From NCBI RefSeq assembly GCF_056746865.1, contig NZ_CM163382.1: a stretch of DNA of 64,000 nt, one strand, 5' to 3'. This document shows, one piece after another, positions 1,756 through 59,258 of the stretch. Numbering within the stretch: position 1 is the stretch's first letter; each line of letters starts with the position of its first letter. The translations under genes and the position numbers were made by a program. The notes under the pieces were generated by a model. The model was not told the DNA's origin. It did no database searches and saw only the letters and a program-made list of their open reading frames with translations.

Positions 1756-3195
1756 ATGTCTATTGTGGTGAAAAATAACATTCATTGGGTTGGTCAACGT
1801 GACTGGGAAGTGCGTGATTTTCACGGCACAGAATATAAAACGCTGCGCGGCAGCAGCTACAACAGCTACCTCATTCGCGAAGAAAAAAACGTACTGATCG
1901 ACACCGTCGACCATAAATTCAGCCGCGAATTTGTGCAGAACCTGCGTAATGAAATCGATCTGGCGGATATCGATTACATCGTGATTAACCATGCAGAAGA
2001 GGACCACGCCGGGGCGCTGACCGAACTGATGGCACAAATTCCCGATACGCCGATCTACTGTACAGCCAACGCTATCGACTCGATAAATGGTCATCACCAT
2101 CATCCGGAGTGGAATTTTAATGTGGTGAAAACTGGCGACACGCTGGGTATCGGCAACGGCAAACAGCTCATTTTTGTCGAAACACCAATGCTGCACTGGC
2201 CGGACAGCATGATGACTTACCTGACAGGCGACGCGGTGCTGTTCAGTAACGATGCTTTCGGTCAGCACTACTGCGACGAGCATCTGTTCAACGATGAAGT
2301 GGATCAGACGGAGCTTTTTGAGCAGTGCCAGCGTTACTACGCCAATATCCTTACGCCGTTCAGCCGCCTGGTAACGCCGAAAATTACCGAGATCCTGGGC
2401 TTTAACTTACCAGTCGATATGATAGCGACCTCTCACGGCGTGGTATGGCGCGATAACCCAACGCAAATTGTCGAGCTGTACCTGAAATGGGCGGCTGATT
2501 ATCAGGAAGACAGAATCACCATTTTCTACGACACCATGTCGAATAACACCCGCATGATGGCTGACGCTATCGCCCAGGGGATTGCGGAAACCGACCCACG
2601 CGTGGCGGTGAAAATTTTCAACGTCGCCCGAAGCGATAAAAACGAAATCCTGACCAATGTCTTCCGCTCAAAAGGCGTGCTGGTCGGCACTTCGACGATG
2701 AATAACGTGATGATGCCGAAAATCGCCGGGCTGGTGGAGGAGATGACCGGATTACGCTTTCGTAACAAACGCGCCAGTGCTTTCGGCTCTCACGGCTGGA
2801 GCGGCGGTGCGGTGGATCGTCTTTCCACGCGCCTGCAGGATGCGGGTTTCGAAATGTCGCTTAGCCTGAAAGCCAAATGGCGACCGGACCAGGACGCTCT
2901 GGAGCTATGTCGTGAACACGGTCGCGAAATCGCCCGTCAGTGGGCGCTCGCGCCGCTGCCGCAGAGCACGGTGAATACGGTGGTTAAAGAAGAAACCTCT
3001 GCCACCACGACGGCTGACCTCGGCCCACGGATGCAGTGCAGCGTCTGCCAGTGGATTTACGATCCGGCAAAAGGCGAGCCAATGCAGGACGTTGCGCCAG
3101 GAACGCCGTGGAGTGAAGTCCCGGATAACTTCCTGTGCCCGGAATGCTCCCTTGGCAAAGACGTCTTTGACGAACTGGCATCGGAGGCAAAATGA
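1756..3195 (+). CDS. norV: anaerobic nitric oxide reductase flavorubredoxin
   Basis: 479-aa ORF; flavodiiron-type N-terminus plus C-terminal rubredoxin CxxC...CPxC (CSVCQWIYD...CPECS). Confidence 0.95.
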
Positions 3196-4325
3196 GCAAC
3201 GGCATTGTGATCATTGGTTCGGGCTTCGCCGCCCGCCAACTGGTGAAAAATATTCGCAAACAGGACGCCTGTATTCCATTAACCCTGATTGCCGCCGACA
3301 GCATGGATGAGTACAACAAACCGGACCTCAGCCATGTTATCAGCCAGAGGCAACGTGCCGATGACCTTACCCGCCAGACGGCGGGTGAATTTGCCGAGCA
3401 GTTTAATCTGCACCTGTTTCCGCACACCTGGATAATGGATATCGATGCCGAAGCCCATGTGGTGAAAAGCCAGAATAATCAGTGGCAATACGACAAGCTG
3501 GTGCTGGCAACTGGTGCCAGTGCCTTTGTCCCGCCAGTGCCTGGGCGTGAGTTAATGCTGACGTTAAATAGTCAGCAAGAGTATCGCGCCTGTGAAACGC
3601 AACTGCGGGATGCCCGACGCGTGTTGATTGTTGGCGGTGGCTTGATTGGTAGCGAACTGGCGATGGATTTTTGTCGTGCAGGCAAAGCGGTCACGCTAAT
3701 CGACAACGCTGCCAGTATTCTGGCGTCGTTAATGCCACCGGAAGTAAGCAGCCGCTTGCAGCATCGGTTGACGGAGATGGGCGTTCATCTGCTGTTGAAA
3801 TCTCAGTTGCAGGGGCTGGAAAAAACGGATTCTGGCATTCTGGCAACGCTGGACCGCCAGCGCAGCATCGAAGTGGATGCGGTAATTGCCGCCACCGGAC
3901 TGCGCCCGGAAACCGCCCTGGCACGACGCGCCGGGCTGACGATTAATCGCGGCGTTTGCGTCGATAGTTATCTGCAAACCAGTAATGCCGATATTTATGC
4001 GCTGGGCGATTGCACGGAAATTAACGGTCAGGTATTGCCGTTCCTCCAGCCGATTCAACTTAGCGCGATGGTGCTGGCAAAAAATCTTCTCGGCAATAAC
4101 ACGCCGCTGAAACTCCCTGCGATGCTGGTGAAAATCAAAACGCCAGAATTACCGCTGCATCTGGCAGGCGAAACCCAGCGTCAGGATTTACGCTGGCAAA
4201 TTAATACCGAACGCCAGGGAATGGTGGCGCGCGGTGTTGATGATGCCGACCAGCTTCGCGCCTTTGTGGTCAGTGAGGATCGGATGAAAGAGGCGTTTGG
4301 ATTGTTGAAAACGTTGCCGGTGTAG
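3192..4325 (+). CDS. norW: NADH:flavorubredoxin oxidoreductase
   Basis: 377-aa ORF overlapping the norV stop; N-terminal FAD/NAD fold GSGFAA, second dinucleotide motif GGGLIGSE. Confidence 0.95.
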
Positions 4326-4402: not shown

Positions 4403-6643
4403 CTATGCAGCATGCAGGATGCGCGCCGCAGCAATAACCCCCTGCCCCAGAGACAAGCCGCCATCACCCGCCGGTAAACTCTGCGGAAAGAGTAATGTGA
4501 AATCAGCGAGATAATGCGCCAGGCGTGTACGCAGCAATCGGTTATGAGTAACCCCACCGCTAAATACCAGCGTAGTGATACCGCGCATCGTGGCCTGCTC
4601 ACGCATCAACGCGGCAAAACCCTGCGCCAGCGCATCATGAAACGCCCACGCGCGTTGATTAACCGGTGCCTGCCAGTTCAGCCACTGCTGCCAGAAAGTG
4701 ACGAGATCCAGTTGATTGTCCACCTGCGGCATCGTCACCGGATGCGTCACTCCGTCGCATGAGGCTGCGAGCGCCTCCAGAGCACAAGCCGCTTCACCTT
4801 CATAACTTAACGTGGCTGGCGCACAGCCCAGTGCCGCCGCCACAGCATCGAACAAACGTCCACACGATGACGCCAGCGGCGCGTTAATTCCACGCTCAAT
4901 GGCCCGCGCCAGCACGCTCCAGTTTTGCTGTTGCACACTTGCCGTTTCAGGGTAATTCTGCCACTCCGGCACAAAGCGCAGGCACTGCGCCAGCAGGTTA
5001 CGCCACGGCTGCTTTGCAGCCAAATCGCCCCCCGGAAGCGCCACCGCAGGCAAGCCGCCCAGGTGCTCACATTCGCGATAGTTCACCCGCAGGCATTCGC
5101 CGCCCCATAAAGCGCCGTTCTCCCCCATACCGATACCGTCGAGCGTCAACGCAATGACATCACCGCCATCCAGTGGCCAGTGATGTTCTGCCAGACACGC
5201 CGCCGCATGAGCATGATGATGCAGCACCGTTTGTGTCGGCAGATTCATTTCGCGCGCCCACTGGCTGGAGACATAGCCCGGGTGCGCGTCATGCACAACG
5301 TATTGCGGGGTGAAATCGTAGATGTTTTGCATCAGGCGTAACGCTTCGCGCCACTGCATCTGGATGCCATCGTCACTTAAATCGCCCAGATGCTGACTCA
5401 ACACCGCTTGTTCGCCGCGCACCAGGCAGAAGGTGTTTTTCAGATCCGCACCGAGACACAGCACAGGCGGAACATTTTTAAAGCCCGGAGGCAAAGCCAG
5501 CGCATCCGGCACATACCCCCGCGAACGGCGCAGCATTTCGCCGCTTTCGCGCACCACCGAATCATCCATCCGCTGCACGATGTCGCGGTTATGTAGCAAG
5601 AATCCGTCGGCAATGCCCTGCAAATCCGCCAGCGCCTGTTCGTTGCTGATAGCCGGTGGTTTACCGCTCAGGTTGCCGGAGGTCATCACCAGCGGACATT
5701 GCAGTTCCTGTAACAGCAAATGCTGAAGCGGGTTCGCAGGCAACATTACCCCGACTTCGTTAAGGCCAGGGGCGATATCATCACAAAGCTCAGGTACGTA
5801 TTTTTTATCCACCAGCACAATCGGCGCGGCGGGCGTGGTAAGCAACTGGCGCGCAGCGTCTGGTAAACCTTCTGCCACTGGCAACATGACCGCCAGCGGT
5901 TTCGCCGGGCGATGTTTGCGCGCCCGAAGTGTCGCCACCGCGTTACTGTTACACGCATCGCAGGCGAGATGAAATCCGCCAATCCCTTTGATGGCGACAA
6001 TGTTGCCCATTTTTAACTGTGCGATAGCCGCCTGTAATGCCGCCTCTTGTTCTGCATGTTCACCATGACTTACCCATTCAAGATGTGGGCCACACTCCGG
6101 GCAGGCCACCGGCTGGGCGTGGAAGCGACGATCGAGCGGGTCGCGATATTCTTTGTCACAGGCCGGACACAGCGGAAACGCCGCCATCACGGTAAACGGG
6201 CGGTCGTAAGGCATCGCGCGAATAATGGTGAAACGTGGGCCGCAGTGGGTACAGTTGATAAACGGATAACGATAACGCCGCTCGCCCGGGGTATTCATTT
6301 CGGCAAGACAGGCAGGGCAAGTAGCGGCATCGGGAACAATTTGCGTATTCATGGTGCCGCCTGTGCTCTGGCGTATAGTGAACTCGGTGGGCAGTTGTGA
6401 CCAGATAAACGGCTCACGCTCGACGCTATCAATACGCGCCAGCGGCGGGCAGTGCTGATGCAACTGCACAAGAAACGTTTCCGGGTCTTCCAGCAGCCGG
6501 ACTTCCACTCCATCGCCGTCATTACAGACATCGCCGTGAAGATTTAATTGCTGTGCCAGCTGCCAGACAAACGGACGAAAACCGACGCCCTGCACTTTGC
6601 CACGAATACGCAGTTGGACACCGCAAGATGTGTTTTTTGCCAT
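4403..6643 (-). CDS. hypF: [NiFe]-hydrogenase maturation carbamoyltransferase HypF
   Basis: long ORF (open to 6715); start taken at [25 protein letters not shown]; acylphosphatase N-terminus and zinc-finger CxxC pairs. Confidence 0.9.
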
Positions 6644-8741: not shown

Positions 8742-11632
<2,891 letters not shown>

Positions 11633-43740: not shown

Positions 43741-43991
43741 AACCGTTCCTTTGCAATACCGCTATTTTCTTGCCATCAGATGTTTCGACTATAGGGAGCG
43801 CAGGAGAACGAATGAAATTACCAATTAGAATGAGTAGTTCCTTAACGGAATAACGATTTGGCAAAGCTAATATCAAAAAGTGCTTAAGGCACCGGATTTC
43901 GGGCGTTTAGGAAGATTTGAAATTGTTTTAGCGCATCGGCAGTTTCATACTATGGCGGTAAAAAAATTTGCATGGTATTTAAGGACTCACT

Positions 43992-45029
43992 ATGTTTTCC
44001 GCATTGCGCCACCGTACCGCTGCCCTGGCGCTCGGCGTATGCTTTATTCTCCCCGTACACGCCTCGTCATCTAAACCTGGCGATTTTGCTAATACTCAGG
44101 CACGACATATTGCTACTTTCTTTCCGGGACGCATGACCGGAACTCCAGCAGAAATGTTATCTGCCGATTATATTCGCCAACAGTTTCAGCAAATGGGTTA
44201 TCGCAGTGATATTCGGACATTTAATAGTCGGTATATTTATACCGCCCGCGATAATCGCAAGAGCTGGCATAACGTGACGGGAAGTACGGTGATTGCCGCT
44301 CATGAAGGCAAAGCGCCGCAGCAGATCATCATTATGGCGCATCTGGATACTTACGCCCCGCTGAGCGATGCTGACGCCGATGCCAATCTCGGCGGGCTGA
44401 CGTTACAAGGAATGGATGATAACGCCGCAGGTTTAGGTGTCATGCTGGAATTGGCAGAACGCCTGAAAAATACGCCTACCGAGTATGGTATTCGATTTGT
44501 GGCGACCAGTGGTGAAGAGGAAGGGAAATTAGGTGCTGAGAATTTACTCAAGCGGATGAGTGACACCGAAAAGAAAAATACGCTGCTGGTGATTAATCTC
44601 GATAACTTAATTGTTGGCGATAAATTGTATTTCAACAGCGGCGTAAAAACCCCTGAAGCAGTAAGGAAATTAACGCGCGACAGGGCGCTGGCAATTGCGC
44701 GTAGTCATGGAATTGCCGCAACGACCAATCCGGGTTTGAATAAAAATTATCCGAAGGGTACTGGCTGTTGTAATGACGCCGAAGTTTTCGACAAAGCCGG
44801 TATTGCCGTACTTTCGGTAGAAGCAACAAATTGGAATCTTGGGAATAAGGATGGTTATCAGCAACGCGCAAAAACAGCTGCATTCCCTGCGGGAAATAGC
44901 TGGCATGACGTAAGACTGGATAATCAACAACATATTGATAAGGCACTTCCAGGAAGAATAGAACGTCGCTGCCGTGATGTTATGCGGATAATGCTACCGC
45001 TGGTGAAGGAGCTGGCGAAGGCGTCTTGA
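43992..45029 (+). CDS. iap: alkaline phosphatase isozyme conversion aminopeptidase
   Basis: 345 aa with signal peptide and M28-type peptidase features; classic neighbour of the E. coli CRISPR array. Confidence 0.9.
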   Translation: MFSALRHRTAALALGVCFILPVHASSSKPGDFANTQARHIATFFPGRMTGTPAEMLSADYIRQQFQQMGYRSDIRTFNSRYIYTARDNRKSWHNVTGSTVIAAHEGKAPQQIIIMAHLDTYAPLSDADADANLGGLTLQGMDDNAAGLGVMLELAERLKNTPTEYGIRFVATSGEEEGKLGAENLLKRMSDTEKKNTLLVINLDNLIVGDKLYFNSGVKTPEAVRKLTRDRALAIARSHGIAATTNPGLNKNYPKGTGCCNDAEVFDKAGIAVLSVEATNWNLGNKDGYQQRAKTAAFPAGNSWHDVRLDNQQHIDKALPGRIERRCRDVMRIMLPLVKELAKAS

Positions 45030-45049
45030 TGGGTTTGAAAATAGGAGCT

Positions 45050-46176
45050 GGGAGTTCTACCGCAGGGGCGGGGAACTCCAAGTGATGTCCATCATCGCAT
45101 CCAGTGCGTCCGGTTTATCCCCGCTGACGCGGGGAACACACATGAATGTCGGTTCAGACCGTGTTTTTACCCGGTTTATCCCCGCTGGCGCGGGGAACAC
45201 TGCCTCGGCGGCGGCTCTGCGCAACCGCGAAACGGTTTATCCCCGCTGGCGCGGGGAACACGTTAAACCGTGATGATCAGCAAAAGCTATTTCCGGTTTA
45301 TCTCCGCTGACGCGGGGAACACGTCAATAGGCGGCGTCCCGTAGCCGTCCCCTTCGGTTTATCCCCGCTGGCGCGGGGAACACTTGAAATGGTCCAGCAC
45401 TGCGACCGTCGGCCCCGGTTTATCCCCGCTGGCGCGGGGAACACGCTGGTGGCGCGGGCAAACGGAACAATCCCGCCGGTTTATCCCCGCTGGCGCGGGG
45501 AACACGCTAACCTATAACACGGAAAATCACACGCTAACGGTTTATCCCCGCTGGCGCGGGGAACACGGCCATTCCCCCAAGCAGACGCAGGAAGTTAACG
45601 GTTTATCCCCGCTGGCGCGGGGAACACCTGGATTTCACCTCAGCAAATGCTGGATGTGGCGGTTTATCCCCGCTGGCGCGGGGAACACCACCCCTGATAT
45701 TTTTGCCACCGTGGTTACTCCGGTTTATCCCCGCTGGCGCGGGGAACACAGAAATCAAACTCAGCGTGCAAATGGGGTAGCCGGTTTATCCCCGCTGGCG
45801 CGGGGAACACTTGCGTTATTTCTATCTGGTGAGTCGCGGCACCGGTTTATCCCCGCTGGCGCGGGGAACACGTATTTTTTATCGTCGCATGAGTCGCGGT
45901 AACCGGTTTATCCCCGCTGGCGCGGGGAACACTTCTGCCGCGCCAGCAAACGTATCGGCGGTCACGGTTTATCCCCGCTGGCGCGGGGAACACCCCAGGC
46001 CAAGCATTATATCCTGTGCGTCGTTCGGTTTATCCCCGCTGGCGCGGGGAACACACCAAGAAGCTGACGAATCAGCCCGACACGCACGGTTTATCCCCGC
46101 TGGCGCGGGGAACACCCAGTTTCATATGAGCCGCCGCGCTGGATCATCGGTTTATCCCCGCTGGCGCGGGGAACAC
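45050..46176 (-). CRISPR. type I-E CRISPR array: 18 full 29-bp repeats plus one degenerate terminal repeat, 18 spacers of 32 bp
   Basis: repeat cggtttatccccgctggcgcggggaacac at exact 61-bp period starting 45111 through 46148; variants at 45111 and 45294; degenerate copy 45050-45078; leader on the cas2 side. Confidence 0.97.
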
Positions 46177-46272
46177 ACTAAGCATACATAACTGTTTTTA
46201 AACAAATTTATTCCGCATCAACAATCTACCAACTAAATTAAAACATTTCCTTATTTTTAAAGAACAGATAAC
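46177..46272 (-). promoter_or_regulatory. CRISPR leader
   Basis: AT-rich ~95 bp between last repeat and cas2 stop. Confidence 0.6.
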
Positions 46273-47482
<1,210 letters not shown>

Positions 47483-47486
<4 letters not shown>

Positions 47487-48133
47487 GCCTCTGCTCCGGG
47501 TTTGATCAGCATCAGACCACAGCCGAACGCGCGGCTTTTGCCATACCCCTGGCTCAGACGTTGCAGAAATAACCCGGGATCGGTGACCGTAAGCATCCCC
47601 GTATAATCCACGCTACTGAACTGGATCAGTTGCCGGGAGTTTTCCCGCCACAGTTGCTGTTGTCGGTAGGCATCAACCGAGGTATCCAGCAGTGTAAAAC
47701 CGCTTCTCTCCCCCTGCGCTGCCAGCCAGTCCAGCGCCGCCTGTTGTTGATGCAACCAGACATCACTTCCTTCCGCCTGCCCCCTCACCTGCCGTTTCGC
47801 CTCCATCAGCAGATCGTGGCGCTTGCCCGCTTTACAGATTGTTGGATTCGCCCGCAGGTTGAAACAAAGTTGTTGTCCGGTACGCAGCTCGGGCACAAAT
47901 GACCGGCATTCGATGGTGAACGTTTCACTTTCTGCCGGGCGTTCCTGCGACAGTACAAAAAAGCGAAACGCGCCCTGGAGTTCTTCCCGACGATAAAGAA
48001 ATTGCCTTTCTTTGCCGCCAGGGAAGAGATCCCACAGCCACTGATGCATCACATATTCCCCGCGATCCACCAGATGCAGCAACTGCGCAGGCGAAAGCTG
48101 GCCGGTATGTAAGGTTATTCTTGAGAGGTACAT
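47483..48133 (-). CDS. cas6e: Cas6e (CasE) crRNA endoribonuclease, divergent I-E variant
   Basis: 216 aa from MYLSRITLHTG with RBS GGAGGA; conserved MYLS N-terminus, FNLRANP and C-terminal GKSRAFGCGL. Confidence 0.8.
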
Positions 48134-48837
48134 GGTTCCTCCTTGCTGAGCCACGGCCCCTGATTGACGGTGCGTTCCCCAAACAACCATTGCTGACGAT
48201 TTAAAGGAACATCCCGGCGGCGCAATATTTTGCTCGCGACCAGGCCGTCGTGCTCCCCTTCCCACCAGCATTCATCCTGAAGTTTCGGGAGTGCGATTTT
48301 CAGGTCGTGGAAATGCTCCTGATACTGGTGATATGCGTTACGTAAAACATCAGACGCGTTGCCTTCAAGCAGTAACGGCGCAAGTGGTAATGCCAGCGGA
48401 TGACTTTTTCGCCCCAGATAAAGCGGAAAAACTGGATGGCGTAAACCGCCCTGCAACTGTTCGAGGCTGTAAGGCGCATCGGCTGTTGTTGCCACCGCCA
48501 CCATCCACCAGGCGTCGGTGTAGTAGTCGCGCCGGGAGATAATCGCGCTCAGAAGATCAGGGTCGCTCAACTCTTCGCGACGGCTGAAATAACGCGCTTT
48601 ACGCACCTCTTTTGGCATCTGGATTGTGTGATAATCCCGTGCCCAGCGCGGGTTACGGCTGGCGCAAACCACCAGTGAATAGTGGCGGTTAAACACGTTT
48701 AATCGTTCGGTATCATCACGCCGAATCCCTACCCCGGCAGCCAGCAGCCCCAGCAATGCTGAGCGCGAAGGCAGTTCATGGGTATGACGCACTTCGCCCG
48801 CTCCAAACAAACATTTCTCAACGTCTACTGAAGTCCA
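48115..48837 (-). pseudogene. cas5e: cas5e (casD) lacking its 5-prime end
   Basis: frame reads ...HELPSRSALLGLLAAGVGIRRDD (Cas5 glycine-rich motif) but hits a stop at 48838-48840 with no ATG; upstream is AT-rich island DNA. Confidence 0.65.
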
Positions 48838-48969
48838 TCAAATCCACGAATATCAAGCCTTTCAGCCATTTTCATAGCTTATTAACGTCTACTCACAACT
48901 ACCAGAATCTACACACAGAAGTGTATAGTAATGCGTATAGGACAAAATTTATTTTTTGGAGCTATACAC

Positions 48970-50184
48970 ATGCTGCTTTCAGACCTTGCTATCAGGCGCG
49001 CGAAGCCGAAAGAAAAGGCTTATACACTCAATGACGGTAACGGGCTTTCGTTACTCATTGAGCCGAACGGCTCGAAAGGGTGGCGACTACGTTACAGATT
49101 TGCAGGAAAGCCCAAAATGTTGTCGTTGGGCGTGTACCCTGATGTGTCTCTGTCTGATGCCAGAGCGGCAAGGGATGAGGCTAAAAGGCTTCTTGCTGGT
49201 GGTATAAATCCAAGTGAGGCCAGAAAAGCTCAAAAGCGAGAACAGGCGAGCAAATTTGGCAATACTTTTGAGGGTATCGCTCGCGAATGGTATGAAAAGC
49301 GGATCGACAGGTGGTCATCGTCATACGCCGAGGAAATGATCGAGACGTTTGAAAAAGACGTTTTTCCGTACATTGGCGGCAGGCCGATCGCAGAAATTAA
49401 GCCAATGGAGTTGCTTGCGGTTCTCTCCCGTCTTAATGACCGTGGGGCGACCGAAAAATTGCGTAAGGTTCGCCAGCGATGCGGCGAGGTGTTCCGGTAC
49501 GCAATCATCACCGGACGCGCTGAATATAACCCCGCACCAGATCTGGCAAGCGCATTTGCTCCACACAAAAAAGAGCATTATGCCTATTTGAAGGCCGACG
49601 AACTGCCGGAATTTTTCCGCGTTCTTAATACGTACACCGGAAGCCAGATCGTCAAGCTGGGTATGCGATTATTGATTCTGACAGGGCTCCGGCCAGGGGA
49701 ATTACGACAGGCAGAATGGCAGGAGATCGATTTTGATAATCGTTTGTGGGAAGTGCCTAAAGAACGAATGAAGATGCGCCGTCCTCATTGTGTGCCGCTT
49801 TCAGAACAGGCGATCGCTATTCTGGAACAGTTAAAACACATGACGGGGCAGTATCAGTTTATTTTCCCTGGTCGAATCCAGCACAGTAAGCCGATGAGTG
49901 AAATGGCGATGAACGTGCTTATTCGTCGTATTGGCTATTCTGGGCGCGTTACTGGTCATGGGTTCCGGCACACGATGAGCACGATTTTACATGAGCAGGG
50001 CTATAACACCGCGTGGATAGAAACGCAGCTTGCACACGTTGATAAGAACTCAATTCGTGGCACGTACAATCATGCGCAATATCTGGACGGGCGGCGCGAG
50101 ATGCTCCAGTGGTACGCCGACTATATGGACTCACTGGAACAGGGCGGCAACGTGGTGCATGGCAAGTTCGGAAAATGTGGATGA
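48970..50184 (+). CDS. int: tyrosine recombinase, P4/CP4-57-type integrase
   Basis: 404 aa from MLLSDLAIRRAK; N-terminal arm-binding-like domain; C-terminal catalytic GHGFRHT and RGTYNHAQY. Confidence 0.9.
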   Translation: MLLSDLAIRRAKPKEKAYTLNDGNGLSLLIEPNGSKGWRLRYRFAGKPKMLSLGVYPDVSLSDARAARDEAKRLLAGGINPSEARKAQKREQASKFGNTFEGIAREWYEKRIDRWSSSYAEEMIETFEKDVFPYIGGRPIAEIKPMELLAVLSRLNDRGATEKLRKVRQRCGEVFRYAIITGRAEYNPAPDLASAFAPHKKEHYAYLKADELPEFFRVLNTYTGSQIVKLGMRLLILTGLRPGELRQAEWQEIDFDNRLWEVPKERMKMRRPHCVPLSEQAIAILEQLKHMTGQYQFIFPGRIQHSKPMSEMAMNVLIRRIGYSGRVTGHGFRHTMSTILHEQGYNTAWIETQLAHVDKNSIRGTYNHAQYLDGRREMLQWYADYMDSLEQGGNVVHGKFGKCG

Positions 50185-57328: not shown

Positions 57329-57411
57329 TTCACAACAGCGAACAGAGTAATTACCCAGTGCGCCGTAAAGCCCCGTCCTTCAGGTCGGGGATATAAGGCG
57401 CGGTTTTCCAC

Positions 57412-57828
57412 CTAACTAGGTGTTTGCTGTTGTTCAATGTATTGGCGGATGATGGATATTGGCGCACCTCCGCAGCTACTGGCAAAATAGCTGGGACTCC
57501 ATAAAACGCCTTTGTAGTAATACCTGACTGCAATATCTGGTCGATCTCGTCGCAATAATCTACTCGATACGCCCTTGAGACTGTTCACCAGGGTGGATAT
57601 CGCCAATTTGGGAGGATAGTTAATTAGCAGGTGAACGTGATCTCGTTCTCCATCCATTTCAACCAGTTCAGCTTCAAAATCAGCACATACACTTGAAAAG
57701 TAAGTGCGTAGTTTTTCTATTGCGTCATGGTCAAAAATCTGGCGTCGGTACTTGGTAACAAAGACCAGGTGAACGTGCATCAGGAAGACACAGTGCCTTC
57801 CACGTCGGATATCGGTTTCTTTTTTCAT
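57412..57828 (-). CDS. tnpA: IS200/IS605 Y1 (HUH) transposase TnpA
   Basis: 138 aa from MKKETDIRRG; HUH motif HVHLL and catalytic Tyr region VLWSPSYFASSCGG. Confidence 0.85.
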   Translation of the reverse strand: MKKETDIRRGRHCVFLMHVHLVFVTKYRRQIFDHDAIEKLRTYFSSVCADFEAELVEMDGERDHVHLLINYPPKLAISTLVNSLKGVSSRLLRRDRPDIAVRYYYKGVLWSPSYFASSCGGAPISIIRQYIEQQQTPS

Positions 57829-57850
57829 AGGCCAAAGTATAATTTGGCAT

Positions 57851-59059
57851 ATGAAACGACTACAAGCTTTCAAATTCCAGTTAAGACCAAATGGAAAACA
57901 GGAGCGTGAAATGAGGCGCTTCGCGGGCGCATGTCGTTTCGTTTTCAATCGTGCTCTGGCGCTTCAGAATGAGAATCATGAGGCCGGGAACAAATATATT
58001 TCTTATGCAAAGATGACTTCCTGGCTGGTTGAATGGAAAAATGCTACTGAAACGCAATGGCTTAAAGATTCTCCCTCACAGCCATTGCAGCAGTCACTGA
58101 AAGACCTTGAGCGAGCCTACAAAAATTTCTTTCAGAAGCGTGCCGCTTTTCCCCGATTCAAAAAGCGGGGACAGCATGATGCATTCCGCTATCCGCAGGG
58201 TGTTAAGCTCGATCAGGAAAACAGCCGTATTTTTCTGCCGAAACTGGGCTGGATGCGCTACCGGAACAGCCGTCAGGTCACGGGTGTTGTGAAAAATGTC
58301 ACTGTCAGCCAGTCCTGCGGTAAGTGGTACATCAGTATTCAGACAGAAAGTGAAGTATCAACTCCGGTTCACCCTTCAGCATTAATGGTCGGGCTGGATG
58401 CTGGCGTGGCTAAACTCGCCACGCTGTCAGATGGCACGGTCTTTGAGCCTGTAAACAGTTTTCATAAAAACCAGAAGAAGCTGGCGAGACTTCAGCGCCA
58501 GTTAAGCCGCAAGGTTAAATTCAGCAACAACTGGCAGAAGCAGAAACGCAAAATACAGCGACTGCATTCCCGTATCGCAAATATCCGCAGGGACTACCTT
58601 CACAAAGTCACAACGACCATCAGCAAAAACCACGCAATGATAGTCATTGAGGATTTGAAGGTCAGCAACATGTCAAAGTCAGCCTCGGGTACGGTCAGCC
58701 AGCCGGGGCGCAATGTCCGGGCAAAATCAGGTTTAAACCGTTCGATACTGGATCAGGGCTGGTATGAAATGCGCCGTCAGCTTGAGTACAAGCAGCTCTG
58801 GTGTGGCGGTCAGGTGCTTGCTGTTCCGCCAGCGTACACAAGCCAGCGTTGCGCGTGCTGTGGTCATACAGCGAAAGAAAATCGCCTGTCACAAAGTCAA
58901 TTCAGATGCCAGGTATGTGGATATACAGCGAACGCCGATGTAAACGGCGCTCGTAACATTTTAGCGGCGGGGCACGCCGTTCTTGCCTGTGGAGGGATGG
59001 TGCAGTCAGGCCGCCCGTTGAAGCAGGAACCCACCGAAATGATTCAGGCGACAGCCTGA
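57851..59059 (+). CDS. tnpB: TnpB (OrfB) RuvC-like RNA-guided nuclease
   Basis: 402 aa; N-terminus [17 protein letters not shown]; RuvC region [15 protein letters not shown]; zinc finger [12 protein letters not shown]...CQVCG; [10 protein letters not shown]. Confidence 0.85.
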
Positions 59060-59118
59060 ACGTAGCAGGAATCCACGTCCTTCAGGGCGTGGAGGATGTC
59101 AAATATCAATGCGACGAC
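58900..59118 (+). ncRNA. predicted TnpB omega-RNA (tnpB 3-prime end, right-end hairpin, flanking guide)
   Basis: inferred from IS200/IS605 architecture only; right-end hairpin 59073-59092; guide would be about 16 nt from 59103. Confidence 0.3.
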
Positions 59119-59258
59119 TGGAATGTTCCAGGAAGGCACAGAGGCCACCGAAGCAACCGGATAATTTAGAAGACCTGAAACGGTCGCTTAAACGCACTGA
59201 AAAAGAAATGGGGATAGATGGGATCGGGAAATCAGTATGGCGTAACTACCAGAAGTAA
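59109..59258 (+). CDS. possible small basic protein (49 aa)
   Basis: ATG at 59109 just right of the inferred IS end; MRRLECSRKAQRPPKQPDNLEDLKR...; followed by strong terminator; no clear RBS. Confidence 0.25.
   Translation: MRRLECSRKAQRPPKQPDNLEDLKRSLKRTEKEMGIDGIGKSVWRNYQK

Follow-up and report, generated by a model that had tools for sequence, protein, structure and literature searches.

An IS609-like insertion sequence with a TnpB nuclease and a predicted omega-RNA at a 983-bp prophage deletion

IS608 of Helicobacter pylori, which serves as the mechanistic model for the IS200/IS605 family of insertion sequences, carries its two genes co-directionally, whereas the element described here, which occupies positions 57355-59102 of a 64,000-nt stretch of contig NZ_CM163382.1 (assembly GCF_056746865.1; this whole stretch is called the window below), has divergent tnpA and tnpB genes. 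The two share the TTAC target, the TCAA right site and the AAAG guide, as well as a TnpA with an HUH motif and a C-terminal tyrosine and imperfect hairpins in which a T is unpaired or mismatched. The guide of IS608 adjoins the foot of the left hairpin on its 5' side and serves to recognise TTAC, and TCAA is the right cleavage site (PMC5027513, PMC3201880); the catalytic tyrosine of IS608 TnpA is Y127 (PMC3201880). The cleavage sites of IS608 are 19 and 10 nt from the hairpins (PMC3201880), versus 16 and 6 nt in the window, and the TnpA proteins are distant homologues.

For the nuclease, the closest structural reference is TnpB of ISDra2 from Deinococcus radiodurans, in which Y52 and S56 make contact with base -1 of the target-adjacent motif (TAM), the A at -2 being read by Q80 (PMC10097598). 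Y52, Q80, the RuvC triad and the zinc finger are all conserved in the window TnpB; S56 is replaced by T56, and K76, which reads G at -3 in ISDra2, by S76. The ISDra2 TAM is TTGAT, in contrast to the TTAC predicted for the window; A at -2 is common to both, alongside Q80. The ISDra2 omega-RNA shares sequence with the tnpB 3' end and with the right end of the element, and the same arrangement is predicted here. As set out below, the element of the window is of a known kind, one that automatic annotation picks up in thousands of genomes. It is practically an element already known: IS609-like, of the IS200/IS605 family, and carrying TnpB. Very probably it is intact and, to judge from its sequence, still active, with a TnpB guided by an omega-RNA.

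The element, its ends and its proteins

Direct reading of the sequence, together with a profile search of the proteins, gave an element of 1,748 bp with divergent tnpA and tnpB genes. It has subterminal imperfect hairpins at both ends in place of terminal inverted repeats (all positions in this paragraph are on the plus strand). TTAC, the TnpA left cleavage site, lies just outside the element at 57351-57354, as it does in the left flank of 10 independent copies with an AAAG guide, and is also the predicted TnpB TAM. The AAAG left guide (57367-57370) abuts the foot of the left hairpin on its 5' side; it was assigned from its IS608-like sequence and position, and it changes in step with the flank. 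The left hairpin (57371-57390) consists of CCCCGTCC (57371-57378), the loop TTCA and GGTCGGGG (57383-57390); it begins 16 nt past TTAC, contains a T-T mismatch and is kept in relatives. The right hairpin (59073-59092) consists of CCACGTCC (59073-59080), TTCA and GGGCGTGG (59085-59092); it contains a T-G wobble and shows compensatory changes in relatives. When folded as single-stranded DNA and compared with dinucleotide shuffles, the left hairpin gave -6.1 kcal/mol (z = -2.2) and the right one -7.7 kcal/mol (z = -3.2). Directly 5' of the right hairpin is GAAT (59069-59072), which is the right guide if the stem is 8 bp long and which matches the right guide of IS608, likewise GAAT. The right cleavage site, TCAA (59099-59102), lies 6 nt beyond the right hairpin, forms the last four bases of the element and is invariant in all relatives. 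Conservation ends there: in the 3' regions of 30 related elements of other genera it was high through GAGGATGTCAA and gone directly after.

The outer bounds were confirmed by comparing copies in unrelated contexts. A megablast query made of the element with 100-nt flanks hit 5,042 of the 5,426 complete Escherichia coli genomes searched (93%), at 11,369 places and with a median of two per genome. Among the 30 matches listed, the alignments started at query base 97 (window 57351, T of TTAC), with one at base 94 (57348), and ended at 59102 to 59110, the excess being a few chance bases; their contexts were unrelated. Eight copies retrieved from unrelated contexts had identical boundaries. Right flanks of the copies compared were mutually unrelated and never repeated the left flank, so that there is no target-site duplication. 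The first-pass annotation of this DNA, made from the window alone, had placed TTAC, the two hairpins, TCAA and a TATAAT hexamer at positions and spacings that all proved correct on re-reading, and had proposed IS608-type target and end rules, with which the AAAG guide, TTAC flank and TCAA end agree. The homology bounds coincide with the ends that it assigned, and its expectation that other copies with matching ends should exist is borne out by thousands of them.

Some of these copies are indistinguishable from the window element. Identity over all 1,748 bp (100%) was found for copies on IncI2 conjugative plasmids of 60-69 kb. NZ_AP027794.1 (locus L004) carries two identical direct copies (4704-6451 and 9418-11165) that lie 4.7 kb apart and close to ISApl1, and a plasmid-borne copy on NZ_MN232197.1 (L077) is also 100% identical. 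The fully identical IncI2 copies, two of them direct on one plasmid, argue for recent mobility. Neither a second or partial copy nor a self-target flanked by TTAC is present elsewhere in the 64 kb of the window. When one genome per species was scanned, 66 related loci were located; the genera with such loci include Citrobacter, Xenorhabdus, Morganella, Serratia, Klebsiella, Yersinia, Photorhabdus and Pantoea. Many prophage-borne relatives (among L078-L096, L109, L110, L122 and L010) are without tnpA. The left hairpin of these tnpA-less relatives lies only 53 nt before the tnpB start, which marks them as tnpB-only derivatives, and in several the left guide has decayed and tnpB is still intact.

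Both encoded proteins are complete, and profile scores and catalytic residues agree with the first-pass assignment of a Y1/HUH tnpA and a divergent tnpB with a RuvC domain and a zinc finger. On the minus strand, tnpA (57412-57828) encodes a 138-residue Y1/HUH transposase that scored 147 bits (cutoff 55) against the NCBIfam model NF033573 (transpos_IS200). A phmmer comparison with the solved IS608 TnpA (2a6m/2vhg) gave E = 5e-21 and 78 bits, with the HUH motif (H64-V-H66) conserved, and the C-terminal RQYIEQQ aligned with KQYIENQQ of IS608, placing the catalytic tyrosine at Y130. On the plus strand, tnpB (57851-59059) encodes a 402-residue protein, an RNA-guided endonuclease by homology, that scored 391 bits (cutoff 100) against NF040570 (guided_TnpB) and matched the ISDra2 TnpB structures (8EXA, 8H1J and 8BF8) over its full length (E = 2e-55). 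The RuvC D-E-D residues (D183, E267 and D363) and the zinc-finger cysteines (C334, C337, C353 and C356, as CxxC...CxxC) are present. The alignment to ISDra2 over residues 3-95 is ungapped and puts Y52, T56 and Q80 at the TAM-contact positions. A 2026 screen that lists critical TnpB residues, and in which an IS609 TnpB was also purified, is available (PMC12781874); the residues of its critical set are all present in the window TnpB, with a numbering offset of +2.

From what is known of the family, TnpA would bind both subterminal hairpins on the top strand as single-stranded DNA, locating TTAC via the AAAG guide beside the left hairpin and TCAA via the tetranucleotide beside the right one. It would then excise the top strand as a circle and re-insert it 3' of another TTAC, without target duplication.

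Target tetranucleotide, left guide and TnpB residue 56

The relatives provide a comparison of the target with the DNA guide, base for base. Elements with an AAAG guide had a TTAC flank at 10 independent sites, and elements with an AAAA guide, classical IS609 among them, had a TTAT flank at 13 independent sites. Of 24 sites with an intact guide, 23 thus combine a guide ending in G with a target ending in C, or a guide ending in A with a target ending in T. The comparison drew on loci L004-L110, from which L012, L025 and L028 were left out since their left ends were not located; the left end of L016 is disrupted, and that of L013 is divergent yet has AAAG with TTAC upstream. The sole mismatch, L011, has a TTAC flank with an AAAA guide; it carries A56 in TnpB, so that only its flank is odd. 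This dependence of flank on guide is as expected if the element's own DNA selects the target.

The nuclease follows the same division. Among residues 1-250 of TnpB, residue 56 alone separated the TTAC from the TTAT groups perfectly, being threonine in every TTAC/AAAG element and alanine in every TTAT/AAAA element; extra prophage copies agreed. Codon 56 lies at 58016-58018 of the window and aligns with S56 of ISDra2. Flank and residue 56 still agreed in copies whose guide is damaged (L005, L083, L026, L046 and the L086 group). In a neighbour-joining tree of tnpB, elements with TTAC and T56 fell inside TTAT/A56 clades in at least three places: the group of the window beside L006-L008, L020 among L027, L056 and L015, and L017 with L051 among L022, L018 and L021. 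The three-way switch is therefore recurrent and not one inherited event. This pattern suggests selection on TnpB in the IS609-like family to keep to the tetranucleotide that TnpA uses, and the TAM of the window copy is predicted to be TTAC. Guide base, target base and residue 56 switching together amount to a natural re-targeting experiment, and residue 56 may offer a simple way to move the TAM preference of TnpB between C and T at -1.

The predicted omega-RNA and expression signals

To look for a conserved guide-RNA structure, window positions 58930-59102 were aligned with 24 non-identical relatives (25 sequences in all) and folded with RNAalifold. The consensus has 48 pairs, and in 10 of these both partners have changed. 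Standard pairs filled 97.8% of cells, versus 38-48% when the partners were slid by 1-3 columns, and none of 500 shuffles attained the observed pairing, covariation score or count of compensatory pairs. Helices with such pairs fall within the tnpB coding sequence or cross its stop codon (alignment columns 40:46, 68:88, 69:87, 73:84 and 112:147). TnpA hairpin binding cannot account for compensatory helices inside the coding region. A long-range helix of 58956-58961 with 59094-59099, in which changes are one-sided only, closes the structure just before TCAA.

The predicted omega-RNA scaffold accordingly spans about 58956-59102 on the plus strand, taking in the tnpB 3' end as well as the element's right end. 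The last ~150 nt of the tnpB transcript, up to the right end, would be processed and fold into this scaffold, and the following 16-20 nt of flanking DNA would serve as the guide. The predicted guide segment, ATATCAATGCGACGACTGGA (59103-59122, plus strand), is prophage DNA that follows TTAC in element-free prophages (positions 4145-4148 of locus L001). An inner stem of the scaffold, CCUGUGGAG...GAAGCAGGAA (58986-59029), scored 28 bits against the RAGATH-18 consensus, which is below threshold. In IS607 TnpB systems RAGATH-18 forms the guide-RNA core (PMC11061315), and the resemblance hints that a guide-RNA core may be shared between IS605-type and IS607-type elements.

The 22-nt spacer between the genes (tnpA starts at 57828) holds overlapping -10-like boxes on the two strands (57836-57843): TATAAT on the plus strand (57838-57843), 7 nt before the tnpB ATG, and TATACT on the minus strand (57841-57836), 7 nt before the tnpA ATG. 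An exact TATAAT at 7 nt was present in 13 of 19 relatives from other genera, and three more had a variant matching at five of six positions (16/19). The 7-nt spacer before the tnpB ATG varies freely among relatives and contains no Shine-Dalgarno motif. In L025, which has lost tnpA and whose upstream DNA is unrelated, the hexamer is kept nonetheless. It is conservation by itself that suggests TATAAT to be a real -10 box; promoter-like sites in the element are at shuffle expectation, and one perfect hexamer would be no rarity in 1.7 kb. Overlapping divergent -10 boxes with leaderless or nearly leaderless mRNAs seem the likeliest arrangement; a -10 box only 7 nt before the tnpB ATG makes a leaderless tnpB mRNA probable. 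A literature search found no report of a leaderless bacterial tnpB. At the other end of tnpA, plus-strand positions 57409-57422 hold a small hairpin, CACCTAACTAGGTG, with a T-rich run after it, and overlap the tnpA stop codon. This could stop transcription entering from outside, as has been described for IS200.

The prophage context and comparison with known elements

The element was originally described as inserted in the island of the window. It does lie in that island, a prophage that encodes an integrase, a DUF927-type primase, a single-stranded DNA-binding protein and a large head or injection protein, and it sits between ssb and perC; it is not, however, a simple insertion, since 983 bp of the prophage are replaced. 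In six near-identical element-free prophages (99.4-99.9% over the two flanks), the positions that border the element here are separated by 987 bp. In one of them, L001, the left flank ends in TTAC (3162-3165), and the right flank, ATATCAATGCG..., begins directly after another TTAC (4145-4148). The window thus is without the 983 bp that correspond to L001 3166-4148, the junctions being 57354/57355 and 59102/59103. The missing segment carries a gene of the ProQ/FinO family, another with an Ant-like domain, and the ~70 nt that begin a perC-family gene. The remnant of the last, with its 5' end deleted, lies at 59109-59258 on the plus strand, as judged from the annotation of intact relatives and the open reading frame list.

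The lost segment contains six TTACs on that strand, the last of which is the TTAC at the second breakpoint, so that a random right breakpoint would follow TTAC with a probability of ~6/983, or about 0.6%. So low a chance ties the deletion to the transposase site, and because the 983 bp run from TTAC to TTAC, sites specific for TnpA define both breakpoints. Such a loss means that elements of this kind can remove prophage genes, besides interrupting them. The predicted guide together with TTAC forms a perfect TAM plus target in the intact allele of related prophages, and the TnpB of the window copy would therefore cut such a phage genome at perC. More generally, TnpB with its omega-RNA would cut TTAC-flanked DNA matching ATATCAATGCGACGAC..., i.e. 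the element-free allele; repair templated by an occupied copy would afterwards put the element back. This is the homing and retention role described for TnpB (PMC10055086).

How the deletion arose can be pictured in two ways. We give an even chance to two direct insertions, one at each TTAC, followed by RecA-type recombination that removed one copy together with the 983 bp. With both TTACs on one strand, the two inserted copies would be direct repeats, and the predicted product is exactly what is seen; such recombination is slightly favoured because two identical direct copies do lie 4.7 kb apart on a plasmid, NZ_AP027794.1, which shows that close direct copies occur. This route needs two independent hits within 1 kb, and chimeric junction queries of the 5,426 E. 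coli genomes found neither a double insertion nor a single one, with the element at the first or second TTAC and no deletion. The excision product, with the first TTAC joined directly to ATATCAATG, was likewise absent from these genomes; a query with the left flank alone matched 140 genomes. Possible, if rather doubtful, is a single insertion at the first TTAC followed by an aberrant, one-ended TnpA reaction on single-stranded DNA. The right end would be cut as usual, the active site bound to the left end would engage the downstream TTAC as target, the right end would be joined 3' of that second TTAC, and 983 nt would be released as a circle: an adjacent deletion. This chemistry is that of the normal integration step (PMC3201880, PMC5027513), and it would explain why both breakpoints are exactly 3' of TTAC, an outcome for which the right one has a chance of only ~6/983. 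On the other hand, five other TTACs in the interval would have been skipped, ~2.7 kb of continuous single-stranded DNA would be needed, and a literature search found no report, among the IS605 papers listed, of adjacent deletion by IS200/IS605 Y1 transposases, which counts against such a reaction. Its product, moreover, is indistinguishable from that of recombination between two copies. Were it to occur, IS200/IS605 elements would be direct, site-specific sculptors of prophage and plasmid gene content.

The conclusion that the element is intact, active and RNA-guided has to be set against several observations that weigh the other way. A search of 58932-59115 against Rfam returned HgcC, sot0042 and RAGATH-18, all below their gathering thresholds, and covariation in the right hairpin is expected from TnpA binding alone and so is not itself support for an RNA. 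A simple promoter scan did not call TATAAT, owing to the lack of a good -35 box. The same insertion was absent from the 5,426 genomes, where the best query coverage (90%) was that of the element alone; with insertion, intermediate and excision product all missing there, recent movement at this site is undocumented. One might then regard the copy as a dead relic, neither mobile nor making a working nuclease, and decayed relatives are indeed common, including a tnpA pseudogene by ydcO, prophage copies without tnpA, and mutated left guides in L005 and L083. We consider this improbable, as both reading frames here are complete, all catalytic residues, hairpins, guides and cleavage sites are intact, and the copy is 100% identical to plasmid copies at several different sites.

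A further possibility, to which we attach next to no weight, is a functional link between the TnpB element and the locus of CRISPR repeats and cas genes in the same window, as its replacement or partner. The window contains iap, a CRISPR array (45060-46178, with 18-19 repeats), cas2e, cas1e, cas6e and a cas5e cut off at 48798, a type I-E set; cas7e, casB, casA and cas3 were not seen before the window end. The prophage or island begins inside cas5e, at 48798/48799, with its integrase at 48931-50184, and a strain 100% identical over 43900-48798 has a cas1e annotated with an internal stop. The first-pass annotation had remarked on the nearness of TnpB to a decaying CRISPR-Cas locus: 'decaying' is fair and the distance, ~8.5 kb from the truncated cas5e, is right, but the proximity is without visible meaning. 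Proximity is also all that speaks for a link. The cas genes are of type I-E and unrelated to TnpB/Cas12. A prophage that brings its own integrase holds the element, and in another strain a related island has integrated at a different site, next to yicC. Members of the element family are found elsewhere too, at many sites, in 93% of E. coli genomes. No CRISPR repeat was found near the tnpB element within the window. A CRISPR-Cas component was accordingly rejected as an identity for the element, given the 8.5 kb between them, the type I-E locus, the prophage's own integrase and the lack of repeats by tnpB, and the proximity looks coincidental.

Among described elements, two invite comparison with that of the window. 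An element near the hok/mok locus was called 'IS683' in the IncI2/mcr-1 literature (PMC5996929). IncI2 plasmids, for which the names 'IS683' and 'IS200' are in use in the mcr-1 plasmid literature, do carry copies 100% identical to the window element, ~2 kb from the hok/mok locus; IS683 is a candidate name for the window sequence, as a lead only. IS609 of E. coli, made up of tnpA and insQ/tnpB and represented by the copy adjoining ydcO and by the copies labelled 'IS609 family' in RefSeq, has the same 1,748 bp, the same divergent gene order, and the same hairpins, TCAA end and omega-RNA region. By ISfinder convention, elements share a name at about 95% DNA identity or more to the reference copy; with the RefSeq-labelled or ydcO-adjoining copies as reference, the window element is 94.7-95.3% identical. 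The TnpB proteins differ at 15-18 of 402 residues (about 96% identity). The differences include the features that switch together, IS609 having TTAT with AAAA and A56 in TnpB, whereas the window element has TTAC with AAAG and T56. They extend to the start of tnpB, which is GTG in IS609 and ATG in the window, and to the -10 box, TATCAT in IS609 versus TATAAT.

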